Shown in pieces: positions 2,215 to 31,101 of a stretch of DNA of 64,000 nucleotides. Every line of letters starts with the position of its first letter. Positions within the stretch are counted from its first letter, which is position 1. Origin of the DNA: Escherichia phage EC128; the sequence record ON210139.1, one strand, 5' to 3'. The notes below the pieces were generated by a model that was not told the origin of the DNA, did no database searches, and saw only the letters and a program-made list of their open reading frames with translations. The translations under genes and the position numbers were made by a program.

Positions 2215-3802
<1,588 letters not shown>

Positions 3803-3805
3803 GCT

Positions 3806-3859
3806 GTTTACAAGTCCCTCGTGTTGTGTTACAGTAGTCTTACTGACATAACATGAGGA
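3806..3859 (+). promoter_or_regulatory. early promoter/stem-loop element, copy A (GTTTAC -35, TACAGT -10, through SD GAGGA)
   Basis: GTTTAC 3806-3811, 18-nt spacer, TACAGT 3830-3835; 53/54 nt identical to 17909-17962; imperfect stem GTCC(C)TCGTGTT/AACATGAGGAC encloses the -10. Confidence 0.6.
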
Positions 3860-3866
3860 CTTTATG

Positions 3867-4370
3867 ATGGATTTGCAGCTTATTACTACTGAGATGGTCG
3901 TTGAAGCATACGGTGATACTACAGATGGGATTTCTGTATTCAAAGGAAATCGTCGAGTTGGATATATCACTGATCTTAAGAAAGATTTAGCTAAGCAAGT
4001 TAAGCGGAAAACGACCGTTAAAGAATATCGAAATCGTCGTCTTGAGAAAGCCCGTGATATGCTTCCTAATGCAGTTGAGGAGATGAAAGTCTTTTTAGAA
4101 AATCAACTCGTTAAGTATGATTGTGAAGTGTTCATTAATCAGACTCAACCTAATGTTCATATTAACAACTGTAAATGCTATATCATCGTTAATCCTTTGA
4201 CAGGAAAACATCGTCTTGGAATTAGTAATCCAAATCGTAGCGCATCAGATATGGCAGAAGATGTTGAGGCATGCTTTAAAATTTCTAAATCTCCGGCTGA
4301 ACATCATATTTTAATTAACGGTCTTTCTCAAGACGATATTATAGAGGTTATTAAAACTTTATGCAATTAA
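3867..4370 (+). CDS. alc: Alc, inhibitor of host transcription, 167 aa
   Basis: MDLQLITTEMVVEAYGDTTDG..; position after rnlA as in T4; SD GAGGA 7 nt upstream. Confidence 0.85.
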   Translation: MDLQLITTEMVVEAYGDTTDGISVFKGNRRVGYITDLKKDLAKQVKRKTTVKEYRNRRLEKARDMLPNAVEEMKVFLENQLVKYDCEVFINQTQPNVHINNCKCYIIVNPLTGKHRLGISNPNRSASDMAEDVEACFKISKSPAEHHILINGLSQDDIIEVIKTLCN

Positions 4371-7112: not shown

Positions 7113-7151
7113 GTTTACTTTACGGTAGAGTTGTGATATTATAGCTCTACC
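7113..7151 (+). promoter_or_regulatory. early promoter with stem-loop enclosing the -10 (PeSL-like)
   Basis: GTTTAC 7113-7118, 18-nt spacer, TATTAT 7137-7142; stem GGTAGAG (7124-7130) / CTCTACC (7145-7151). Confidence 0.5.
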
Positions 7152-7172
7152 AAAACAAATGAGGAAATTGAA

Positions 7173-7700
7173 ATGAGCGAATGGTTTGAAGAAGATAAGG
7201 TTTATCGCTTTAAAGCTGGATATAAAGATATTTTTAATGAAACTTGCGGGGCTAATAAACGAATTGCCCAGTTTATTGGGGAAAATTCATTTAAAGTAAA
7301 AATAGATCCTGCGAAAAATGTTATTAGCATTAAACGCGAAATTGATGATTGTTGGTATAAAGCTGTTGATGTAATGGGCGAATCTTATAAAGTTAGCCCG
7401 TTATTTTCAATTGCTTATATGTTAGAATATTCTTTTTTCGAAGAAGTTCAAAAAGATGATTCTGTCAGTAAATTTGAAATTAAAACTGATAAAGAAATTA
7501 AGTGGAAAGTAGTAGGTATTACTGGTTGTATGTTTTATATCTATGCTCAAACTGATACGAAGGAAGAAGCTAAAAAGAAAGCTCTAGAATATCTTGAAGA
7601 GTATGAAGAAGGTCCGGTAATGATTACTCAAGATGCTGAATTAGTTTCTGTCAAATTAGTTAAAAATGTTGAAAGTAAGGAGCTGGGATCAACATGCTAA
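7173..7700 (+). CDS. hypothetical protein, 175 aa
   Basis: ATG with SD GAGGA; follows PeSL-like promoter; no recognisable motif. Confidence 0.65.
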   Translation: MSEWFEEDKVYRFKAGYKDIFNETCGANKRIAQFIGENSFKVKIDPAKNVISIKREIDDCWYKAVDVMGESYKVSPLFSIAYMLEYSFFEEVQKDDSVSKFEIKTDKEIKWKVVGITGCMFYIYAQTDTKEEAKKKALEYLEEYEEGPVMITQDAELVSVKLVKNVESKELGSTC

Positions 7701-10695: not shown

Positions 10696-10744
10696 GTTTA
10701 CAGTATAGTTCCTTTGTGATAGTATTATCTTACACAAACAAAGG
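10696..10744 (+). promoter_or_regulatory. early promoter (GTTTAC -35, TAGTAT/TATTAT -10) with possible stem enclosing the -10
   Basis: GTTTAC 10696-10701; -10 at about 10720-10729; CCTTTGT (10711-10717) can pair with ACAAAGG (10738-10744). Confidence 0.5.
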
Positions 10745-10752
10745 AGAATAAA

Positions 10753-11085
10753 ATGAAAACGATTAATCTGAACGCTGCAGTTAAAACTAAATGCTTCAAT
10801 GGTAAATATAATGAAACTATGTGGTTCTTAATGGCAGTTGAAGGTGATATTATTGAAGTAGAAACAACAGAAGGTATGGGAACAGATTTCACCTTTACAA
10901 TTCAAGTTCATAATTTCTTTACTGGTTGGATTTATGAATTGAATACAGTAATCGTTGGAAAAATTGAACAAAATGAATTAGGCGAATGGCATTATGTTAC
11001 AGCTCGCCAACGTGCAGAACGCTTAATTGAGAAGATGAAAAAAGTTGGTAAACTTGACATGCAGCATTGGAAAGTAGTAAAATAA
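10753..11085 (+). CDS. hypothetical protein, 110 aa
   Basis: ATG with SD AAGGAG; downstream of early promoter. Confidence 0.65.
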   Translation: MKTINLNAAVKTKCFNGKYNETMWFLMAVEGDIIEVETTEGMGTDFTFTIQVHNFFTGWIYELNTVIVGKIEQNELGEWHYVTARQRAERLIEKMKKVGKLDMQHWKVVK

Positions 11086-11557: not shown

Positions 11558-11845
11558 ATGTTTATGACTACTTATTTTGATACCCGCAAAAATTTCTGTG
11601 AAGTTGTTTTCTCAAAGGCACCTAAAGACCTTCCTGCACATTTGCAACCTACTAGCGAATCGATTAAAAACTACGTTGATGTGGTTTGTCCTTTAGAGTT
11701 CCGTACTGTAAATGGGCGTGATACTTTAGCTATCACTAAACTCAATCGCGAAATTGACATTGACCCTTCAATTGCGCGCGAAATTAATATCTCTGATATT
11801 GGCGGCGGTAATGTTAAATCGCACGGTTTTCAGATGAGGTTCTAA
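11558..11845 (+). CDS. hypothetical protein, 95 aa
   Basis: ATG with SD GAGGA; preceded by hairpin GGGGC-TTCG-GCCCC at 11528-11541. Confidence 0.6.
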   Translation: MFMTTYFDTRKNFCEVVFSKAPKDLPAHLQPTSESIKNYVDVVCPLEFRTVNGRDTLAITKLNREIDIDPSIAREINISDIGGGNVKSHGFQMRF

Positions 11846-12042
11846 TGAAATTCTTTTTAGGTCAAACTGTTGAATTAAAGGGAGTTGGTATACCTGGATT
11901 AATTTCTAAGGTTCTACCTCCATTTAAATGGAGTGGTATTCAAATAAAAGAGGCTTATATTGTTTCCTGGGTAGATGGAAATGAAGACCTTCGTATGGGT
12001 GATGAATTATCTCCTATCTACGGATTAAAGGAATTAGTATGA
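11845..12042 (+). CDS. hypothetical protein, 65 aa
   Basis: TAATG overlap with upstream ORF; SD GAGGT. Confidence 0.55.
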   Translation: MKFFLGQTVELKGVGIPGLISKVLPPFKWSGIQIKEAYIVSWVDGNEDLRMGDELSPIYGLKELV

Positions 12043-15446: not shown

Positions 15447-15470
15447 AGGCCTTCGGGCCTTTAATTTTAT
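15447..15470 (+). terminator. rho-independent terminator
   Basis: Stem AGGCC-TTCG-GGCCT followed by TTAATTTT. Confidence 0.7.
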
Positions 15471-15475
15471 AAATA
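15468..15475 (+). promoter_or_regulatory. candidate late promoter TATAAATA upstream of alt
   Basis: Exact TATAAATA about 24 nt upstream of alt ATG. Confidence 0.5.
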
Positions 15476-15498
15476 GAATAAACACTAGAGAGGATATG

Positions 15499-17547
15499 AT
15501 GGAACTAATTACAGAATTATTTGACGAAGATACTACTCTTCCGATTACAAACTTAAATCCAAAGAAGAAAATACCACAAATTTTTTCAGTTCATGTTGAT
15601 GATGCAATTGAACAACCAGGCTTTCGTTTATGTACCTATACATCTGGAGGTGATACTAATCGTGATTTAAAGATGGGCGATAAAATGATGCATATTGTTC
15701 CTTTTACATTAACCGCTAAAGGTTCAATTGCTAAATTGAAAGGTCTTGGTCCAAGCCCAATTAATTATATCAATTCGGTTTTTACTGTTGCAATGCAAAC
15801 AATGCGTCAGTATAAAATTGATGCCTGTATGCTCCGTATTCTTAAGTCTAAAACTGCTGGTCAAGCTCGACAAATTCAAGTTATTGCTGATAGACTTATC
15901 CGTAGTCGTTCAGGTGGCAGATACGTCCTTCTTAAGGAACTCTGGGATTATGATAAAAAGTATGCATATATTCTTATACATCGCAAAAATGTATCACTAG
16001 AAGACATTCAAGGGGTTCCGGAAATTAGTACCGAGCTCTTTACTAAAGTTGAATCGAAGGTCGGTGATGTTTATATCAATAAAGATACTGGAGCTCAAGT
16101 AACTAAAAATGAGGCAATTGCAGCATCTATTGCACAAGAAAATGATAAACGTTCTGATCAAGCTGTAATCGTTAAAGTTAAAATTTCCCGTAGAGCAATT
16201 GCACAAAGTCAGTCGTTGGAATCTTCTAGATTTGAAACACCGATGTTTCAAAAATTTGAGGCTTCAGCGGCAGAATTAAATAAACCAGCGGACGCTCCTT
16301 TAATTTCTGATTCTAATGAATTAACGGTAATTTCTACTTCAGGATTTGCACTAGAGAATGCTCTTAGCAGTGTTACAGCTGGGATGGCATTCAGAGAAGC
16401 TTCTATAATTCCTGAAGATAAAGAATCCATTATTAATGCAGAAATAAAAAATAAAGCTTTAGAAAAATTACGAAAAGAATCTATTACTTCAATAAAAACT
16501 TTAGAAACTATTGCTTCTATCGTCGATGATACTTTAGAAAAATATAAAGGTGCTTGGTTTGAAAGAAATATTAACAGACATTCGCATTTAAACCAAGATG
16601 CTGCAAATGAGTTAGTACAAAATTCTTGGAATGCAATAAAAACAAAGATTATTCGAAGAGAATTACGTGGATATGCTCTTACCGCTGGATGGTCATTACA
16701 TCCTATAGTCGAAAATAAAGATTCATCTAAATACACACCAGCACAAAAACGCGGAATTCGTGAATACGTAGGTTCAGGATATGTAGACATAAATAATGCT
16801 CTTTTGGGATTATATAATCCAGATGAGCGTACAAGTATTTTAACAGCACCTGAAATAGAACAAGCCATTGATAATTTAGATTCAGCCTTTAAAAATGGTG
16901 AACGATTACCAAAAGGTATTACTTTGTATCGTTCACAACGAATGTTACCTTCAATATACGAAGCAATGGTAAAAAATCGAGTTTTTTATTTTAGAAACTT
17001 TGTGTCAACATCATTATATCCAAATATTTTTGGTACTTGGATGACTGATTCATCTGTGGGTGTTTTACCAGACGAAAAGCGTCTAAGTGTTTCTATTGAT
17101 AAAACTGATGAAGGACTAGTAAATTCTAGCGATAATTTAGTTGGAATTGGATGGGTTATTACTGGGGCTGATAAGGTTAATGTTGTTTTACCCGGTGGAA
17201 GTTTAGCGCCTTCAAATGAAATGGAAGTCATTTTGCCACGTGGATTAATGGTCAAAGTTAATAAAATAACCGATGCATCTTACAACGATGGAACAGTTAG
17301 AACTAACAACAAGCTTATTCAAGCTGAAGTTATGACCACAGAAGAACTCACCGAATCGGTAATCTATGACGGAGACCATTTAATGGAAACTGGTGAATTG
17401 GTTACAATGACAGGTGATATAGAAGACAGAGTTGACTTTGCATCATTTGTTTCATCAAATGTTAAACAGAAAGTAGAATCATCTCTTGGAATTATTGCGT
17501 CTTGCATAGATATTGCAAACATGCCTTACAAGTTCGTTCAAGGATAA
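15499..17547 (+). CDS. alt: Alt, packaged ADP-ribosyltransferase, 682 aa
   Basis: MELITELFDEDTTLPITNLNPKKKIPQIF.. matches T4 Alt; SD GAGAGGA; second ATG of ATGATG chosen to give 682 aa. Confidence 0.93.
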   Translation: MELITELFDEDTTLPITNLNPKKKIPQIFSVHVDDAIEQPGFRLCTYTSGGDTNRDLKMGDKMMHIVPFTLTAKGSIAKLKGLGPSPINYINSVFTVAMQTMRQYKIDACMLRILKSKTAGQARQIQVIADRLIRSRSGGRYVLLKELWDYDKKYAYILIHRKNVSLEDIQGVPEISTELFTKVESKVGDVYINKDTGAQVTKNEAIAASIAQENDKRSDQAVIVKVKISRRAIAQSQSLESSRFETPMFQKFEASAAELNKPADAPLISDSNELTVISTSGFALENALSSVTAGMAFREASIIPEDKESIINAEIKNKALEKLRKESITSIKTLETIASIVDDTLEKYKGAWFERNINRHSHLNQDAANELVQNSWNAIKTKIIRRELRGYALTAGWSLHPIVENKDSSKYTPAQKRGIREYVGSGYVDINNALLGLYNPDERTSILTAPEIEQAIDNLDSAFKNGERLPKGITLYRSQRMLPSIYEAMVKNRVFYFRNFVSTSLYPNIFGTWMTDSSVGVLPDEKRLSVSIDKTDEGLVNSSDNLVGIGWVITGADKVNVVLPGGSLAPSNEMEVILPRGLMVKVNKITDASYNDGTVRTNNKLIQAEVMTTEELTESVIYDGDHLMETGELVTMTGDIEDRVDFASFVSSNVKQKVESSLGIIASCIDIANMPYKFVQG

Positions 17548-17551
17548 ATCA

Positions 17552-17937
17552 TGGAACTTATTACATAATTATTTGACGGCGCTTCGGCGCCGGTTGTTAA
17601 CTTAAATCCTAAGCATAAAATACCACAAATTTTTGCTATTCAAGCCGGCGAAGAAAGCGTGCTTCCTGGATTTAGATTTTGTACATACACCTCTGGCGGT
17701 GATACGAATAAAAACGTTAAGCCGGGCGATAAAATGATGCATATCGTAATGATAGGTGTTAATGAGAAATTATCACTGGTTAAGCTTAGAAACTTGGGTG
17801 GAAATCCAATTGGCGTCATTAATGCTGTTTTTGATACTGCTCTTCAAACAATGAAGCAGTATAAAATTGACGCATGCCTATTCCGCGTACTAAAAAGTTC
17901 AAAATGTAGTTTACAAGTCCCTCGTGTTGTGTTATAG
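17552..17937 (+). pseudogene. decayed duplicate of the alt 5' region (Alt N-terminal paralogue remnant)
   Basis: ATGGAACTTATTACATAA.. parallels alt start ATGGAACTAATTACAGAA; in-frame TAA at codon 6, then open through residues equivalent to Alt ~7-125; ends inside the downstream promoter repeat. Confidence 0.5.
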
Positions 17938-17962
17938 TAGTCTTACTGACATAACATGAGGA
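17909..17962 (+). promoter_or_regulatory. early promoter/stem-loop element, copy B
   Basis: 53/54 nt identical to 3806-3859 (single C/T difference in the -10); GTTTAC 17909-17914, TATAGT 17933-17938, SD GAGGA 17958-17962. Confidence 0.6.
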
Positions 17963-17969
17963 ACACAAA

Positions 17970-18260
17970 ATGAAATCTTCTTTGCGCTTTTTAGGTCAAG
18001 AACTTGTAGTTGAAGGCGTTATTCCTGCTGATAATGCTTTTAACGAAGCAGTTTATGATGAATTTATCAAAATTTTCGGAACAGATAAAAAGTTTGGAAT
18101 TTTTCCTTCTGAAAATTTTTCAAAGCCAGAACAGACTGAAAGTATTTTTCAGGGTGTAGTAACAGGTAAATTTGAGTCAGAAGCTCCTGTAAAAATTGAA
18201 GTTTATATTGAAGACGGTTTAGTTGCTTCAGTTGCTGCTTTCATTTCATTCCGTAAATAA
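17970..18260 (+). CDS. hypothetical protein, 96 aa, cargo ORF downstream of promoter repeat copy B
   Basis: ATG 8 nt after SD GAGGA; followed by strong bidirectional terminator; no recognisable motif. Confidence 0.6.
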   Translation: MKSSLRFLGQELVVEGVIPADNAFNEAVYDEFIKIFGTDKKFGIFPSENFSKPEQTESIFQGVVTGKFESEAPVKIEVYIEDGLVASVAAFISFRK

Positions 18261-18266
18261 AAATAT

Positions 18267-18284
18267 GGGGACCGAAAGGTCCCC
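18267..18284. terminator. bidirectional terminator hairpin between the 96-aa ORF and gene 54
   Basis: Stem GGGGACC-GAAA-GGTCCCC flanked by A/T-rich runs on both sides. Confidence 0.7.
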
Positions 18285-18288
18285 ATTG

Positions 18289-29682: not shown

Positions 29683-31101
29683 ATGACTTTTACAGTTGAT
29701 ATAACTCCTAAAACACCTACTGGAGTTATAGATCAGACTCAGCAGTTTACTGCTACACCCAGTGGTCAAACTGGAGATGGACCTATTACATATGCTTGGA
29801 CTGTAGATGATGTTCCACAAGATGGAGCTGAAGCAACTTTTAGTTATGTATTAAAAGGACCTGCCGGTCAAAAGACTATTAAAGTAGTTGCAACAAATAC
29901 AGTTCCAGAAGCTGAAGCTGAAACAGCAGAAGCTACTACAACTATCACAGTTCAAAATAAGACACAAACGACCACCTTAGCTGTAACTCCTAATAGCCCT
30001 GACGCTGGAGTAATCGGAACAGCTATTGAATTTACTGCCGCTTTAGCTTCGCAGCCACCAGGTGCATCTGCTACGTATCAATGGCACGTTGACGGTTCTC
30101 CTGTGGGCGAAGCAACTTCTGCTACATTCAATTACACTCCTACCACAAGCGGAGTTAAAACAATTAAGTGTGTGGCTCAAGTAACCGCGACAGATTATGA
30201 TGCAAAAGAAGTTACTTCTAATGAAGTGTCACTGACTGTTAATAAAAAGACACAGACAACTACCTTGGCAGTAACTCCCGATAGTCCTTCAGCTGGAGTA
30301 ATCGGAACAGCTGTTGAATTTACCGCTACTTTAGTTTCTCAACCTGATGGAGCATCTGCTACGTATCAGTGGTATGTAGATGATTCACAAGTTGGTGGAG
30401 AAACTAACTCTACATTTAGCTATACTCCAACTACAAGTGGAGTAAAAAGAATTAAATGCGTAGCCCAAGTAACTGCAGAAAATTACAATGAAAAGGAAGT
30501 TACTTCTAATGAAGTATCATTAACGGTTAATAAGAAGACAATGAATCCACAGGTTACATTGACTCCTCCTTCTATTAACGTTCAGCAAGATGCTTCGGCT
30601 ACATTCACGGCTAATGTTACTGATGCTCCAGAAGAAGCGCAAATTGCGTATTCATGGAAGAAAGATTCTTCTCCAGTAGAAGGGTCAACTAATGTATACA
30701 CTGTTGATACATCATCTATTGGAAGTCAAACTATTGAAGTTACTGCAACTGTTACTGCTACTGATTATGATAGCAAAACTATCACAGCAGAAGGTCAAGT
30801 TCAGGTAACTGATAAAGTTGCTCCAGAACCAGAAGGTGAATTACCTTATGTTCATCCTCTTCCACATCGCACTTCAGCTTATATCTGGTGCGGTTGGTGG
30901 GTTATGGATGAAATCCAAAAAATGACTGAAGAAGGTAAAGACTGGAAAACTGACGACCCAGATAGTAAGTACTACTTGCATCGTTACACTCTTCAGAAGA
31001 TGATGAAAGACTATCCAGAAGTTGATGTTCAAGAATCGCGTAATGGATACATCATTCATAAAACTGCTTTAGAAACTGGTATTATCTATACCTATCCATA
31101 A
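29683..31101 (+). CDS. hoc: Hoc outer capsid decoration protein with four tandem Ig-like domains, 472 aa
   Basis: Repeated Ig-like modules (KTQTTTLAVTP...VSLTVNKK twice); about 96 aa longer than the 376 aa I recall for T4 Hoc. Confidence 0.88.
   Translation: MTFTVDITPKTPTGVIDQTQQFTATPSGQTGDGPITYAWTVDDVPQDGAEATFSYVLKGPAGQKTIKVVATNTVPEAEAETAEATTTITVQNKTQTTTLAVTPNSPDAGVIGTAIEFTAALASQPPGASATYQWHVDGSPVGEATSATFNYTPTTSGVKTIKCVAQVTATDYDAKEVTSNEVSLTVNKKTQTTTLAVTPDSPSAGVIGTAVEFTATLVSQPDGASATYQWYVDDSQVGGETNSTFSYTPTTSGVKRIKCVAQVTAENYNEKEVTSNEVSLTVNKKTMNPQVTLTPPSINVQQDASATFTANVTDAPEEAQIAYSWKKDSSPVEGSTNVYTVDTSSIGSQTIEVTATVTATDYDSKTITAEGQVQVTDKVAPEPEGELPYVHPLPHRTSAYIWCGWWVMDEIQKMTEEGKDWKTDDPDSKYYLHRYTLQKMMKDYPEVDVQESRNGYIIHKTALETGIIYTYP
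29959..30534 (+). repeat. tandem direct repeat, 2 x 288 bp, encoding two near-identical Ig-like domains inside hoc
   Basis: Residues 93-188 and 189-284 of Hoc align without gaps with many identical positions; nucleotide copies are diverged. Confidence 0.8.

Follow-up and report, generated by a model that had tools for sequence, protein, structure and literature searches.

Two early genes of a T4-like phage, alc and alt.-3, are preceded by nearly identical copies of a 54-nt cassette in which an early promoter is fused to the ribosome site of the gene that follows. We consider it reasonably probable that this is a self-insulating early-promoter cassette, in which a hairpin in read-through RNA would cover the ribosome site, and that the alc copy is the original, was moved to alt.-3 in the Tequatrovirus ancestor and has evolved separately from its offshoot since. 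The repeat itself is real and highly non-random, and it belongs with known regulatory modules of phages, those resembling PeSL (promoter-early stem-loop) elements and those gated by a hairpin in the manner of T4 gene e.

The DNA analysed here, referred to as the window, is a 64,000-nt stretch of Escherichia phage EC128 (record ON210139.1). It derives from a Tequatrovirus, a relative of T4, and shares 97-99% identity with Yersinia phage fPS-2, with T4 and with many other phages. We named its genes by homology with the T4 record together with a list of open reading frames (ORFs), and its plus strand is the strand of T4 early-gene transcription (Table 1). Copy A begins 3 nt past the stop codon of rnlA (TAA, 3800-3802) and ends 4 nt ahead of the first ATG of alc (3864), which is followed by a second in-frame ATG at 3867. 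Copy B ends 7 nt ahead of the ATG (17970) of the 96-codon alt.-3 ORF, and the unit containing alt and alt.-3 is closed by a terminator-like hairpin beyond which gene 54 lies on the opposite strand. The alt RNA is a late transcript (PMC9697503). Alt.-3 is a non-essential and uncharacterised protein of 96 aa, and mutants with an extended C terminus allow T4 to escape the CmdTAC defence (PMC11618068); expression of alt.-3 is therefore of current interest. A suspected paralogy between alt.-3 and the ORF at 11845-12042, hinted at by repeat family D11, was not supported (BLASTP E = 0.055).

Table 1 Features of the window that bear on the two cassette copies (positions are those of the window).
Feature	Position	Strand	Remarks
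rnlA (RNA ligase 1)	2678..3802	+	upstream gene; its transcripts would enter copy A
Copy A of the 54-nt cassette	3806..3859	+	gap between rnlA and alc
Copy A -35, GTTTAC (sigma-70 hexamer TTTACA, 3807-3812)	3806..3811	+	consensus scan; invariant in 14 Tequatrovirus A copies
Copy A hairpin 5' arm (anti-SD CCCTC, distal stem, part of the -10)	3817..3836	+	upstream of the predicted start
Copy A extended -10, TGT + TACAGT	3827..3835	+	consensus scan; 17-nt spacer, TG present
Copy A hairpin 3' arm, including SD GAGG (3855-3858)	3841..3858	+	loop 3837-3840; zero diversity across genomes
Predicted start of the alc promoter	3842	+	base A, 7 nt past the -10; by the usual T4 early-promoter spacing (PMC1524935)
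alc (host transcription inhibitor, Pfam PF17527)	3864..4370	+	gene under copy A
Late-promoter motif TATAAATA	15468..15475	+	20 nt 5' of alt; candidate source of late read-through RNA over copy B
alt (ADP-ribosyltransferase)	15496..17547	+	
Remnant of a second alt paralog (T4 alt.-1/alt.-2)	17548..17937	+	reaches up to and into copy B (repeat families D2, D10)
Copy B of the 54-nt cassette	17909..17962	+	5' of alt.-3
Copy B -35, GTTTAC	17909..17914	+	consensus scan
Copy B hairpin 5' arm	17920..17939	+	fold
Copy B extended -10, TGT + TATAGT	17930..17938	+	consensus scan; nearer consensus than copy A
Copy B hairpin 3' arm, including SD GAGG (17958-17961)	17944..17961	+	fold
Predicted start of the alt.-3 promoter	17945	+	putative, by the same spacing
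alt.-3 (96 aa, Pfam DUF5498)	17970..18260	+	gene under copy B
Bidirectional terminator-like hairpin	18265..18286	.	closes the alt/alt.-3 unit ahead of gene 54 (terminator scan)

Direct reading, alignment, a mismatch search and a repeat search (family D4) agree that the copies are identical at 53 of 54 nt. This bears out the identity, the coordinates and the single C/T difference given in an earlier note on this DNA, and it excludes the error that the note had allowed for, a faulty alignment concealing an identity well below 90 percent. The one difference falls at position 27 of the 54-mer, the third base of the -10 hexamer, which is C at 3832 in copy A and T at 17935 in copy B. Each copy runs, as the note described, from a GTTTAC -35 through the -10 and the leader to the Shine-Dalgarno (SD) sequence GAGGA (3855-3859 in copy A, 17958-17962 in copy B), with the start codon a few nucleotides further on. 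Identity breaks off sharply at both ends. Neither the 40 nt upstream of the two copies nor the sequence downstream of them can be aligned, in keeping with the note's description of unrelated flanks. Within the window, no third copy turned up in the mismatch search, which allowed as many as 3 mismatches, and 0 matches to the 54-mer arose in 100 dinucleotide shuffles of the sequence.

The count of copies and neighbours that the earlier note had called for came from a blastn search of GenBank phage records. The 54-mer occurs at 997 places in 499 records, T4 and T2 among them, which amounts to two copies in nearly every record. In every genome that we examined (11 genomes or contigs with both copies, plus singletons), one copy lies 5' of alc and the other 5' of alt.-3. 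GenBank phage records were the useful source for such comparisons; scans for the element in IMG/VR and a metagenome collection returned only ~20 loci.

Both copies fit a T4-type early promoter of the sigma-70 class in a consensus scan, with the arrangement TTTACA-17-TACAGT in copy A and TTTACA-17-TATAGT in copy B and a TG upstream of each -10. The late-promoter motif TATAAATA is absent from the cassette, and the promoter is of the early sigma-70 type. The usual spacing of T4 early promoters (PMC1524935) would place the first transcribed nucleotide at about position 37 of the 54-mer. Copy B has been annotated independently as a T4 early promoter in the GenBank record of phage ASO78A, and there also as a rho-independent terminator (WebGeSTer). 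An AT-rich tract is one of the features by which PeSL elements are recognized; CTAAAAAGTTCAAAATGTA lies directly upstream of the copy B -35, and copy A is preceded by 23 nt of mixed composition, with an A/T-rich run beginning ~25 nt upstream. The main text of the T4 RNA-seq paper that we searched has no entry for alc or alt, and a literature search found no study mapping transcription start sites of T4. Both sites may already figure in T4 promoter compilations or in published PeSL figures.

In RNA, the 54-mer forms a hairpin of 18 bp interrupted by a 2-nt bulge, in which positions 12-24 pair with 41-53 and positions 27-31 with 36-40 around a loop at 32-35. The shorter stem that the earlier note had predicted is real and forms part of this longer structure. 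The 5' arm is made up of the promoter spacer, the TGn and part of the -10, and the 3' arm is the leader, closing in the SD (GAGG, positions 50-53). The hairpin has a free energy of -23.3 kcal/mol in copy A and -22.0 kcal/mol in copy B (z = -4.6 and -5.4), and 0 of 200 shuffles were equally stable. Sense RNA (-25.4 and -23.0 kcal/mol for A and B) is 6-8 kcal/mol more stable than antisense RNA (-17.5 and -17.2 kcal/mol) because the stem contains three G.U pairs. This asymmetry favours the sense-strand RNA over a DNA cruciform, and points to sense-strand RNA as the functional form in these folding models. The single difference between the copies affects the pair 27-40, which is C-G in copy A and U.G in copy B; in copy B of T4 it is U-A. 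The distal-stem segment at the cassette reads GUGUUGUG/CAUAACAU. One segment of the 5' arm is CCCTCGTG. No U tract follows the stem in either copy: CUUUAUGAUGG comes after A and ACACAAAAUG after B, the tails being given as CUUUAUGA (A) and ACACAAAA (B). The combination expected of an intrinsic terminator, a GC-rich stem with a U run directly after it, was not found, and the hairpin is missing from the list produced by the terminator scan. A search of the whole window against Rfam 15 gave 0 matches at the gathering score.

We then compared the computed cost of opening the region from SD to AUG in two kinds of RNA. In read-through RNA the cost is 9.8 kcal/mol at copy A and 12.2 kcal/mol at copy B, and in RNA from the cassette's own promoter it is 2.0 and 4.2 kcal/mol; the gap of ~8 kcal/mol is the same when the start is shifted by +-2 nt. 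The computed probability that the SD of copy A is unpaired in read-through RNA is 0.03. Read-through into both cassettes is plausible, given that the terminator scan found no terminator-like site between rnlA and alc and that a late motif lies ahead of alt. Within alt the scan listed one weak 5-bp candidate (17070-17084) and nothing more ahead of alt.-3.

These energies are consistent with the following mechanism. RNA entering from upstream, whether rnlA transcripts at copy A or alt transcripts at copy B, including any from the late promoter at 15468, would carry both arms of the hairpin; its spacer and -10 (positions 12-31) would pair with the leader and SD (positions 36-53) and mask the ribosome site of alc or alt.-3. 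Transcripts of the cassette's own promoter would start inside the hairpin and so lack the 5' arm, which would leave the ribosome site open. With read-through RNA masked and own RNA open, the downstream gene would be translated mainly from its own early promoter and insulated from transcription arriving from upstream. Their own early promoters would in this way license most translation of alc and alt.-3. Copy B brings a complication: the stop codon of the alt.-2 remnant ORF, in the window and in T4, falls within the hairpin (TAG, 17935-17937). Should this ORF be translated, the ribosomes reading it would open the 5' arm, and copy B would lose its insulation.

The same property can be sought in other early promoters. 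By regular expression, which does not reproduce the experimentally mapped promoter set, we collected 31 cassettes from the T4 genome. Opening read-through RNA costs at least 7 kcal/mol extra for 9 of 27 T4 early-promoter/gene pairs identified by regular expression and for 9 of 118 control sites, these being SD+ATG sites on the same strand of the T4 genome (Fisher P = 0.0012). The contrast is conservative, since the control set probably holds known gated genes such as e. The T4 pairs at or above this threshold include alc, alt.-3 and the promoter 5' of 30.8 (10696-10755 in the window). It is possible, and we put it forward tentatively, that anti-SD insulation encoded in the promoter is a general and portable design of T4-like early genes, with alc to alt.-3 as its preserved example and Mosigvirus alc as a possible second. 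On this view, about a third of the early promoters of T4 have a strand 5' of the start site that pairs with the ribosome site of the following gene, and every gene so equipped would be translated from its own promoter's RNA alone.

Folds and opening energies for the rnlA-alc gap of other genera show how widely the design occurs. In Jiaodavirus, Dhakavirus and Karamvirus, the sequence upstream of alc contains GTTTAC and a spacer that opens with an anti-SD tract (CCTC or TCTCC), followed by an extended -10, a loop and an arm bearing the SD. The distal stems of these genera have unrelated sequences, yet the two strands of each are fully complementary, as in GUCAG/CUGAU (Jiaodavirus) and AUUUGGUU/AACCAAAU (Karamvirus). 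The SD is buried by sequence at or just past the -10 in Gualtarvirus and Biquartavirus, and in Gualtarvirus the AUG is buried too. Across these five genera, z ranges from -2.3 to -7.1 and the extra opening cost from 5.7 to 14.4 kcal/mol. Upstream of Marfavirus alc, the pairing is seen in isolation (z = -3.5), but its net effect vanishes when more of the surrounding sequence is included (-0.2 kcal/mol), and Mosigvirus alc lacks effective insulation (-1.6 to +1.1 kcal/mol). The design is therefore dispensable. RNAalifold found no common helix in the cross-genus alignment; alignment-based covariation failed because the arms are out of register between genera relative to the -35 and -10 anchors. 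The comparative argument rests instead on independent, significant hairpins that always include the ribosome site.

Upstream of alt.-3, Dhaka-, Mosig-, Jiaoda- and Karamvirus carry an ordinary early promoter with a small spacer hairpin that provides no insulation (-3.8 to +1.4 kcal/mol), and among the genera compared the insulating design occurs 5' of alt.-3 in Tequatrovirus only. Since five other genera have insulation at alc, copy B probably came from copy A in the ancestor of the genus: on this comparison of sequences, the insulating cassette was probably ancestral at alc and replaced the resident promoter of alt.-3. Common to the resident cassettes of other genera are GTTTACAA on the left side and (A)ACATGAGGA on the right. 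The transfer probably proceeded, we infer, by short-patch homologous recombination, which would have been anchored on GTTTACAA and AACATGAGGA, blocks that cassettes have in common. The Mosigvirus alc promoter resembles a cassette of the alt.-3 type, which hints at a replacement in the opposite direction, from alt.-3 type to alc, although the similarity is close to the cassette baseline. Near-identical alc and alt.-3 promoters in other genera were a candidate that we rejected, their similarity of ~74-80% being at or near that same baseline.

Variation within the genus bears on when the copy was made and on how strongly it has been kept. We measured diversity across 10-14 Tequatrovirus genomes, with the third-codon positions of alc and alt.-3 (~0.10) as reference. 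Neither the -35 (positions 1-8) nor the 3' arm with the SD (positions 41-54) shows any diversity, and the 5' arm has values of 0.025 at copy A and 0.074 at copy B, the latter set against 0.095 at third-codon positions. The 5' arm of copy B is thus nearly as variable as third-codon positions, which argues for weak selection for the hairpin at alt.-3; overall, the hairpin looks well constrained at alc and weakly constrained at alt.-3. Most changes in the 5' arm are transitions that keep a G.U or A-U pair anyway, and four observed variants break a pair, so within-genus covariation is thin.

How the two copies came to be so alike has three possible answers, of which separate convergence on a strong T4 consensus for early promoter and ribosome site has next to no chance of being right. 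Early cassettes do share blocks (GTTTAC, TGnTAnnnT, CTTAC, GAGGA), and the earlier note had named a consensus present upstream of most early genes as the finding that would undo its claim. Yet a comparison of the other early-promoter cassettes, drawn from the window and from two further genera, gives pairwise identities of 62-74%. The 31 T4 cassettes form 465 pairs with a median identity of 65% and a 95th percentile of 76%, and the highest identity, 98%, is that of alc/alt.-3. Since several further pairs have identities of 85-91%, the early promoters of T4 fall into sub-families, with alc/alt.-3 at the extreme. Moreover, the 53/54 identity covers the consensus-free 17-nt spacer and the loop, with 0 chance matches expected, and the shuffle search, the baseline and the pair ranking together effectively refute convergence. 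Ongoing gene conversion, which would keep the copies identical by concerted evolution in place of one old copying event, seems quite improbable to us. The two loci share segregating polymorphisms at positions 15 (C/T), 16 (G/A), 27 (C/T) and 32 (G/A, both copies in T2), fixed differences between the loci are absent, and 54 bp is near the minimum homology reported for T4 recombination (Singer et al. 1982, as cited in PMC2839356). Against this, about 22 positions are free to vary, mostly by transitions, so shared polymorphisms are expected from recurrent mutation. The mean A-B distance is 2.18 within genomes and 2.34 between them (permutation P = 0.35), and this test on 11 genomes gave no evidence of continuing conversion; T2, DalCa and EP01 have 4-6 differences between A and B. 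The absence of fixed differences, with a within-genome distance that is not smaller, therefore fits one event before the radiation of the genus better than recent or continuing exchange. A single copying of the cassette shortly before the sequenced Tequatroviruses diverged would fit the sequences. The earlier note had suggested recent recombination or transposition; the cross-genus comparison agrees that one locus took over the cassette of the other, but a repeat found throughout 499 records, T4 and T2 included, is not recent.

What the hairpin does is likewise open to other readings. In the classical account of PeSL elements, the stem-loop is a terminator or attenuator and the repeat mainly a portable patch of homology for recombination, the formation of mini-circles and the shuffling of modules between loci. 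We regard this account as unlikely here, even though the definition fits (PMC2839356; PMC4122927), WebGeSTer labelled the ASO78A hairpin a rho-independent terminator, and the T4 sub-families at 85-91% supply several further sets of near-identical cassettes. The missing U tract and the silence of the terminator scan on the hairpin speak against termination, as does a 3' arm that is the SD in every hairpin-bearing genus, which a terminator would not need. The recombination side is weakened by the distance test and by the second alt gene. This gene is complete in T2, DalCa, KRT47 and EP01, and a 1.7-kb deletion reduced it to alt.-1/alt.-2; copy B lies 19 nt from this indel, but the junction is a CTAAAAAG microhomology outside the cassette. 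The idea that cassette-mediated recombination truncated the alt duplicate at the cassette was rejected for this reason, the same 19 nt being present in phages with an intact second alt, where the TAG stop of that gene ends on the first G of the copy B -35. Genes 30 and 31 of T4 are essential, and the terminal redundancy is roughly 3% (about 5 kb). A crossover between A and B would remove genes 30 and 31, and the reciprocal 14-kb duplication would exceed what terminal redundancy and headful packaging accommodate, so viable products are not expected from the deletions or duplications between alc and alt that the earlier note had envisaged. It is very improbable that the hairpin is instead an element of RNA processing or stability, such as an RNase III site or a protective 3'-end stem for the rnlA and alt mRNAs, with cover of the SD as an incidental effect. 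An 18-bp stem with a 2-nt bulge is indeed long for simple masking of an SD. However, stems in six genera differ in length (9-18 bp) and register and always include the SD or AUG, no Rfam family matches, and we know of no specific nuclease motif at the hairpin.

If the insulating mechanism holds, it would explain how the tightly packed early genes of T4-like phages keep individual timing despite heavy read-through from early, middle and late promoters upstream. Hairpin gating, of which gene e is the textbook case, would then operate in the opposite temporal direction as well and at many early genes, and PeSL stem-loops would gain a testable role besides termination. Because transcription and translation control would sit in one cassette of ~55 bp, both could move in a single short-patch recombination event, and alc to alt.-3 would offer a dated example of a whole promoter-plus-translation module transplanted between genes. 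For phage engineers and other users of early promoters, the practical point is that in read-through RNA the ribosome site of the next gene may be silenced by the promoter spacer.

Among known systems, PeSL elements of T4-type phages combine an early promoter with a stem-loop, which can sit between the -35 and -10 or overlap them, and with an SD and start codon on the 3' side (Arbiol et al. 2010, PMC2839356; Comeau et al. 2014, PMC4122927). The cassette shares this plan: it is a compact intergenic module with a sigma-70-type early promoter, a stable promoter-associated stem-loop (by computation) and the next gene's SD and start codon at its 3' end. Several similar copies per genome and a proposed movement by homologous recombination are further points in common. 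PMC4122927 treats the pair T4 and PST, and both copies fit its promoter consensus, TTTACW-N17-TAYWAT. The earlier note's assignment to a PeSL-type element thus holds for the loose description, and fails for the stem, which is no GC-rich terminator, has no U tract and pairs the spacer with the SD. PeSL stem-loops are compact, are often built from a G run and a C run, are read as terminators or attenuators, and in PST lie just upstream of the promoter, whereas the helix of the cassette, with its three G.U pairs, spans the -10 and the start and so ties the spacer of the promoter to the SD. As for the hyperplasticity associated with PeSL, copy B stands ahead of the small, uncharacterised alt.-3 and close to an indel, but copy A has conserved genes, rnlA and alc, on either side and not ORFans. 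No rearrangement with the cassette as its junction was found in the genomes sampled. With a rho-independent terminator the cassette shares a stable stem-loop directly past the stop codon of the upstream gene; it differs in the AU- and GU-rich stem that no U tract follows, and in a 3' arm that is the ribosome site of the next gene.

A further parallel is offered by the anti-SD insulators against read-through in sigma-54 promoters (Levy et al. 2017, bioRxiv 10.1101/086108). There, too, a short CT-rich anti-SD tract inside the promoter pairs with the downstream SD and silences the translation of read-through transcripts only. Those insulators are motifs of 3-5 nt within 25 bp of the SD in E. coli, whereas the cassette, built on a sigma-70 early promoter of a phage, has a 13+5-bp helix whose start lies ~33-38 nt ahead of the SD. 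In T4 genes e, soc, 49 and I-TevI, a promoter lies inside a hairpin that masks the SD, and the gating has been demonstrated experimentally (PMC3014915); alc and alt.-3 are not listed in that review. The parallels are that the SD or AUG is buried in RNA from an upstream promoter, that the proximal promoter lies in the DNA of the 5' strand and yields an RNA that is translated, and that related phages have similar structures. For the cassette, computation gives a sequestered SD in read-through RNA and a predicted start downstream of the 5' strand. By analogy, then, it would work as a variant of this family. The difference lies in timing, for the proximal promoter of e, soc, 49 and I-TevI is late (TATAAATA, gp55-dependent) and the silenced RNA early or middle, while that of the cassette is early. 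The logic would therefore be reversed, with early translation allowed and read-through, including late read-through, silenced, a temporal direction of hairpin gating that seems not to have been described before.

The insulating arrangement predicted for the 54-nt early-promoter cassettes before alc (copy A, 3806-3859) and alt.-3 (copy B, 17909-17962), in which the promoter spacer would pair with the downstream SD in read-through RNA while the promoter's own RNA would lack the 5' arm, also appears elsewhere in the window. Upstream of the T4 30.8 homologue, the SD CAAAGGAG has its pairing partner in the spacer, UUCCUUUG, and the computed energy needed to expose the region from SD to AUG is 8.2 kcal/mol in read-through RNA versus 0.2 in the promoter's own RNA. 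By this folding model, the cassette is of the same insulating design as copies A and B, built from a different sequence.

Early-promoter cassettes of T4 (OZ035787.1) can be grouped into sub-families; within these, cassettes from widely separated loci share 85-91% identity across 54 nt. Strong insulation against read-through is predicted for 9 of the 27 T4 promoter/gene pairs.

Cassettes and hairpin in the window, with example cassette pairs in T4
Feature	Sequence	Position	Context
Early-promoter cassette	window	7113-7175	upstream of ORF 7173-7700
Early-promoter cassette	window	10696-10755	before T4 30.8 homologue (ORF 10753-11085, 110 codons)
Perfect 9-bp GC-rich hairpin	window	18265-18286	between convergent genes alt.-3 and 54
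T4 cassette pairs, examples	OZ035787.1	143452/99841, 70957/67543, 146327/50012	
T4 cassette pairs, further examples	OZ035787.1	126707/70678, 128147/50744, 130753/93374	

The alc promoter of Mosigvirus (L027, L039), compared with the alt.-3 upstream regions of that genus (L037, L038), is of the alt.-3 type (GTTTACAAACACCAAGGATGGTG...) and has no SD hairpin; this element occurs in 2-3 places per Mosigvirus genome. Cassette replacement may have occurred there in the direction opposite to that in Tequatrovirus. In the Gaprivervirus phage VR26 (L025, 160-393), the gap between rnlA and alc holds an additional small ORF annotated as Alc-like. Ahead of this ORF come a terminator-like GGGG...CCCC hairpin and a separate SD-covering stem, so that the gap is arranged unlike that of the other genera.

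Upstream of alt.-3, the alt.-1/alt.-2 region (17548-17937; compare 15496-15900) preserves the N-terminal part of a second alt paralog, originally full-length. The complete gene, 2058 nt long, is intact in T2, DalCa, KRT47 and EP01; a deletion of ~1.7 kb is common to the window and T4, and its junction, 19 nt before copy B, is a CTAAAAAG microhomology. The remnant alt.-2 ORF ends inside copy B, where a T at position 27 creates its TAG stop codon (17935-17937) within the upper stem of the hairpin. Were this ORF translated, its ribosomes could melt that structure, and translation could be coupled into alt.-3.

The hairpin beyond alt.-3 scored on both strands in a terminator scan and is therefore probably a bidirectional terminator. 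At its other end, alt.-3 shares an FLGQ..GV motif with the start of ORF 11845-12042 (T4 30.5), with 71% DNA identity between 11853-11886 and 17987-18020; paralogy of the two ORFs is unsupported (BLASTP E = 0.055).

Separately, two tandem direct repeats of 288 nt (29947-30522, 76% identity) lie within a 472-codon ORF (29683-31101). The annotations of DalCa and KRT47 identify this ORF, by synteny, as hoc, and the repeat therefore probably corresponds to the tandem Ig-like domains of its product.

The cassette at 7113-7175 carries a 12-bp hairpin (GGTAGAGTTGTG/TATAGCTCTACC, z = -4.2) that covers the -10 and leaves the SD free. This stem-loop belongs to another class than the SD-covering hairpins, and more closely resembles PeSL, the promoter-early stem-loop cassette of T4-type phages.
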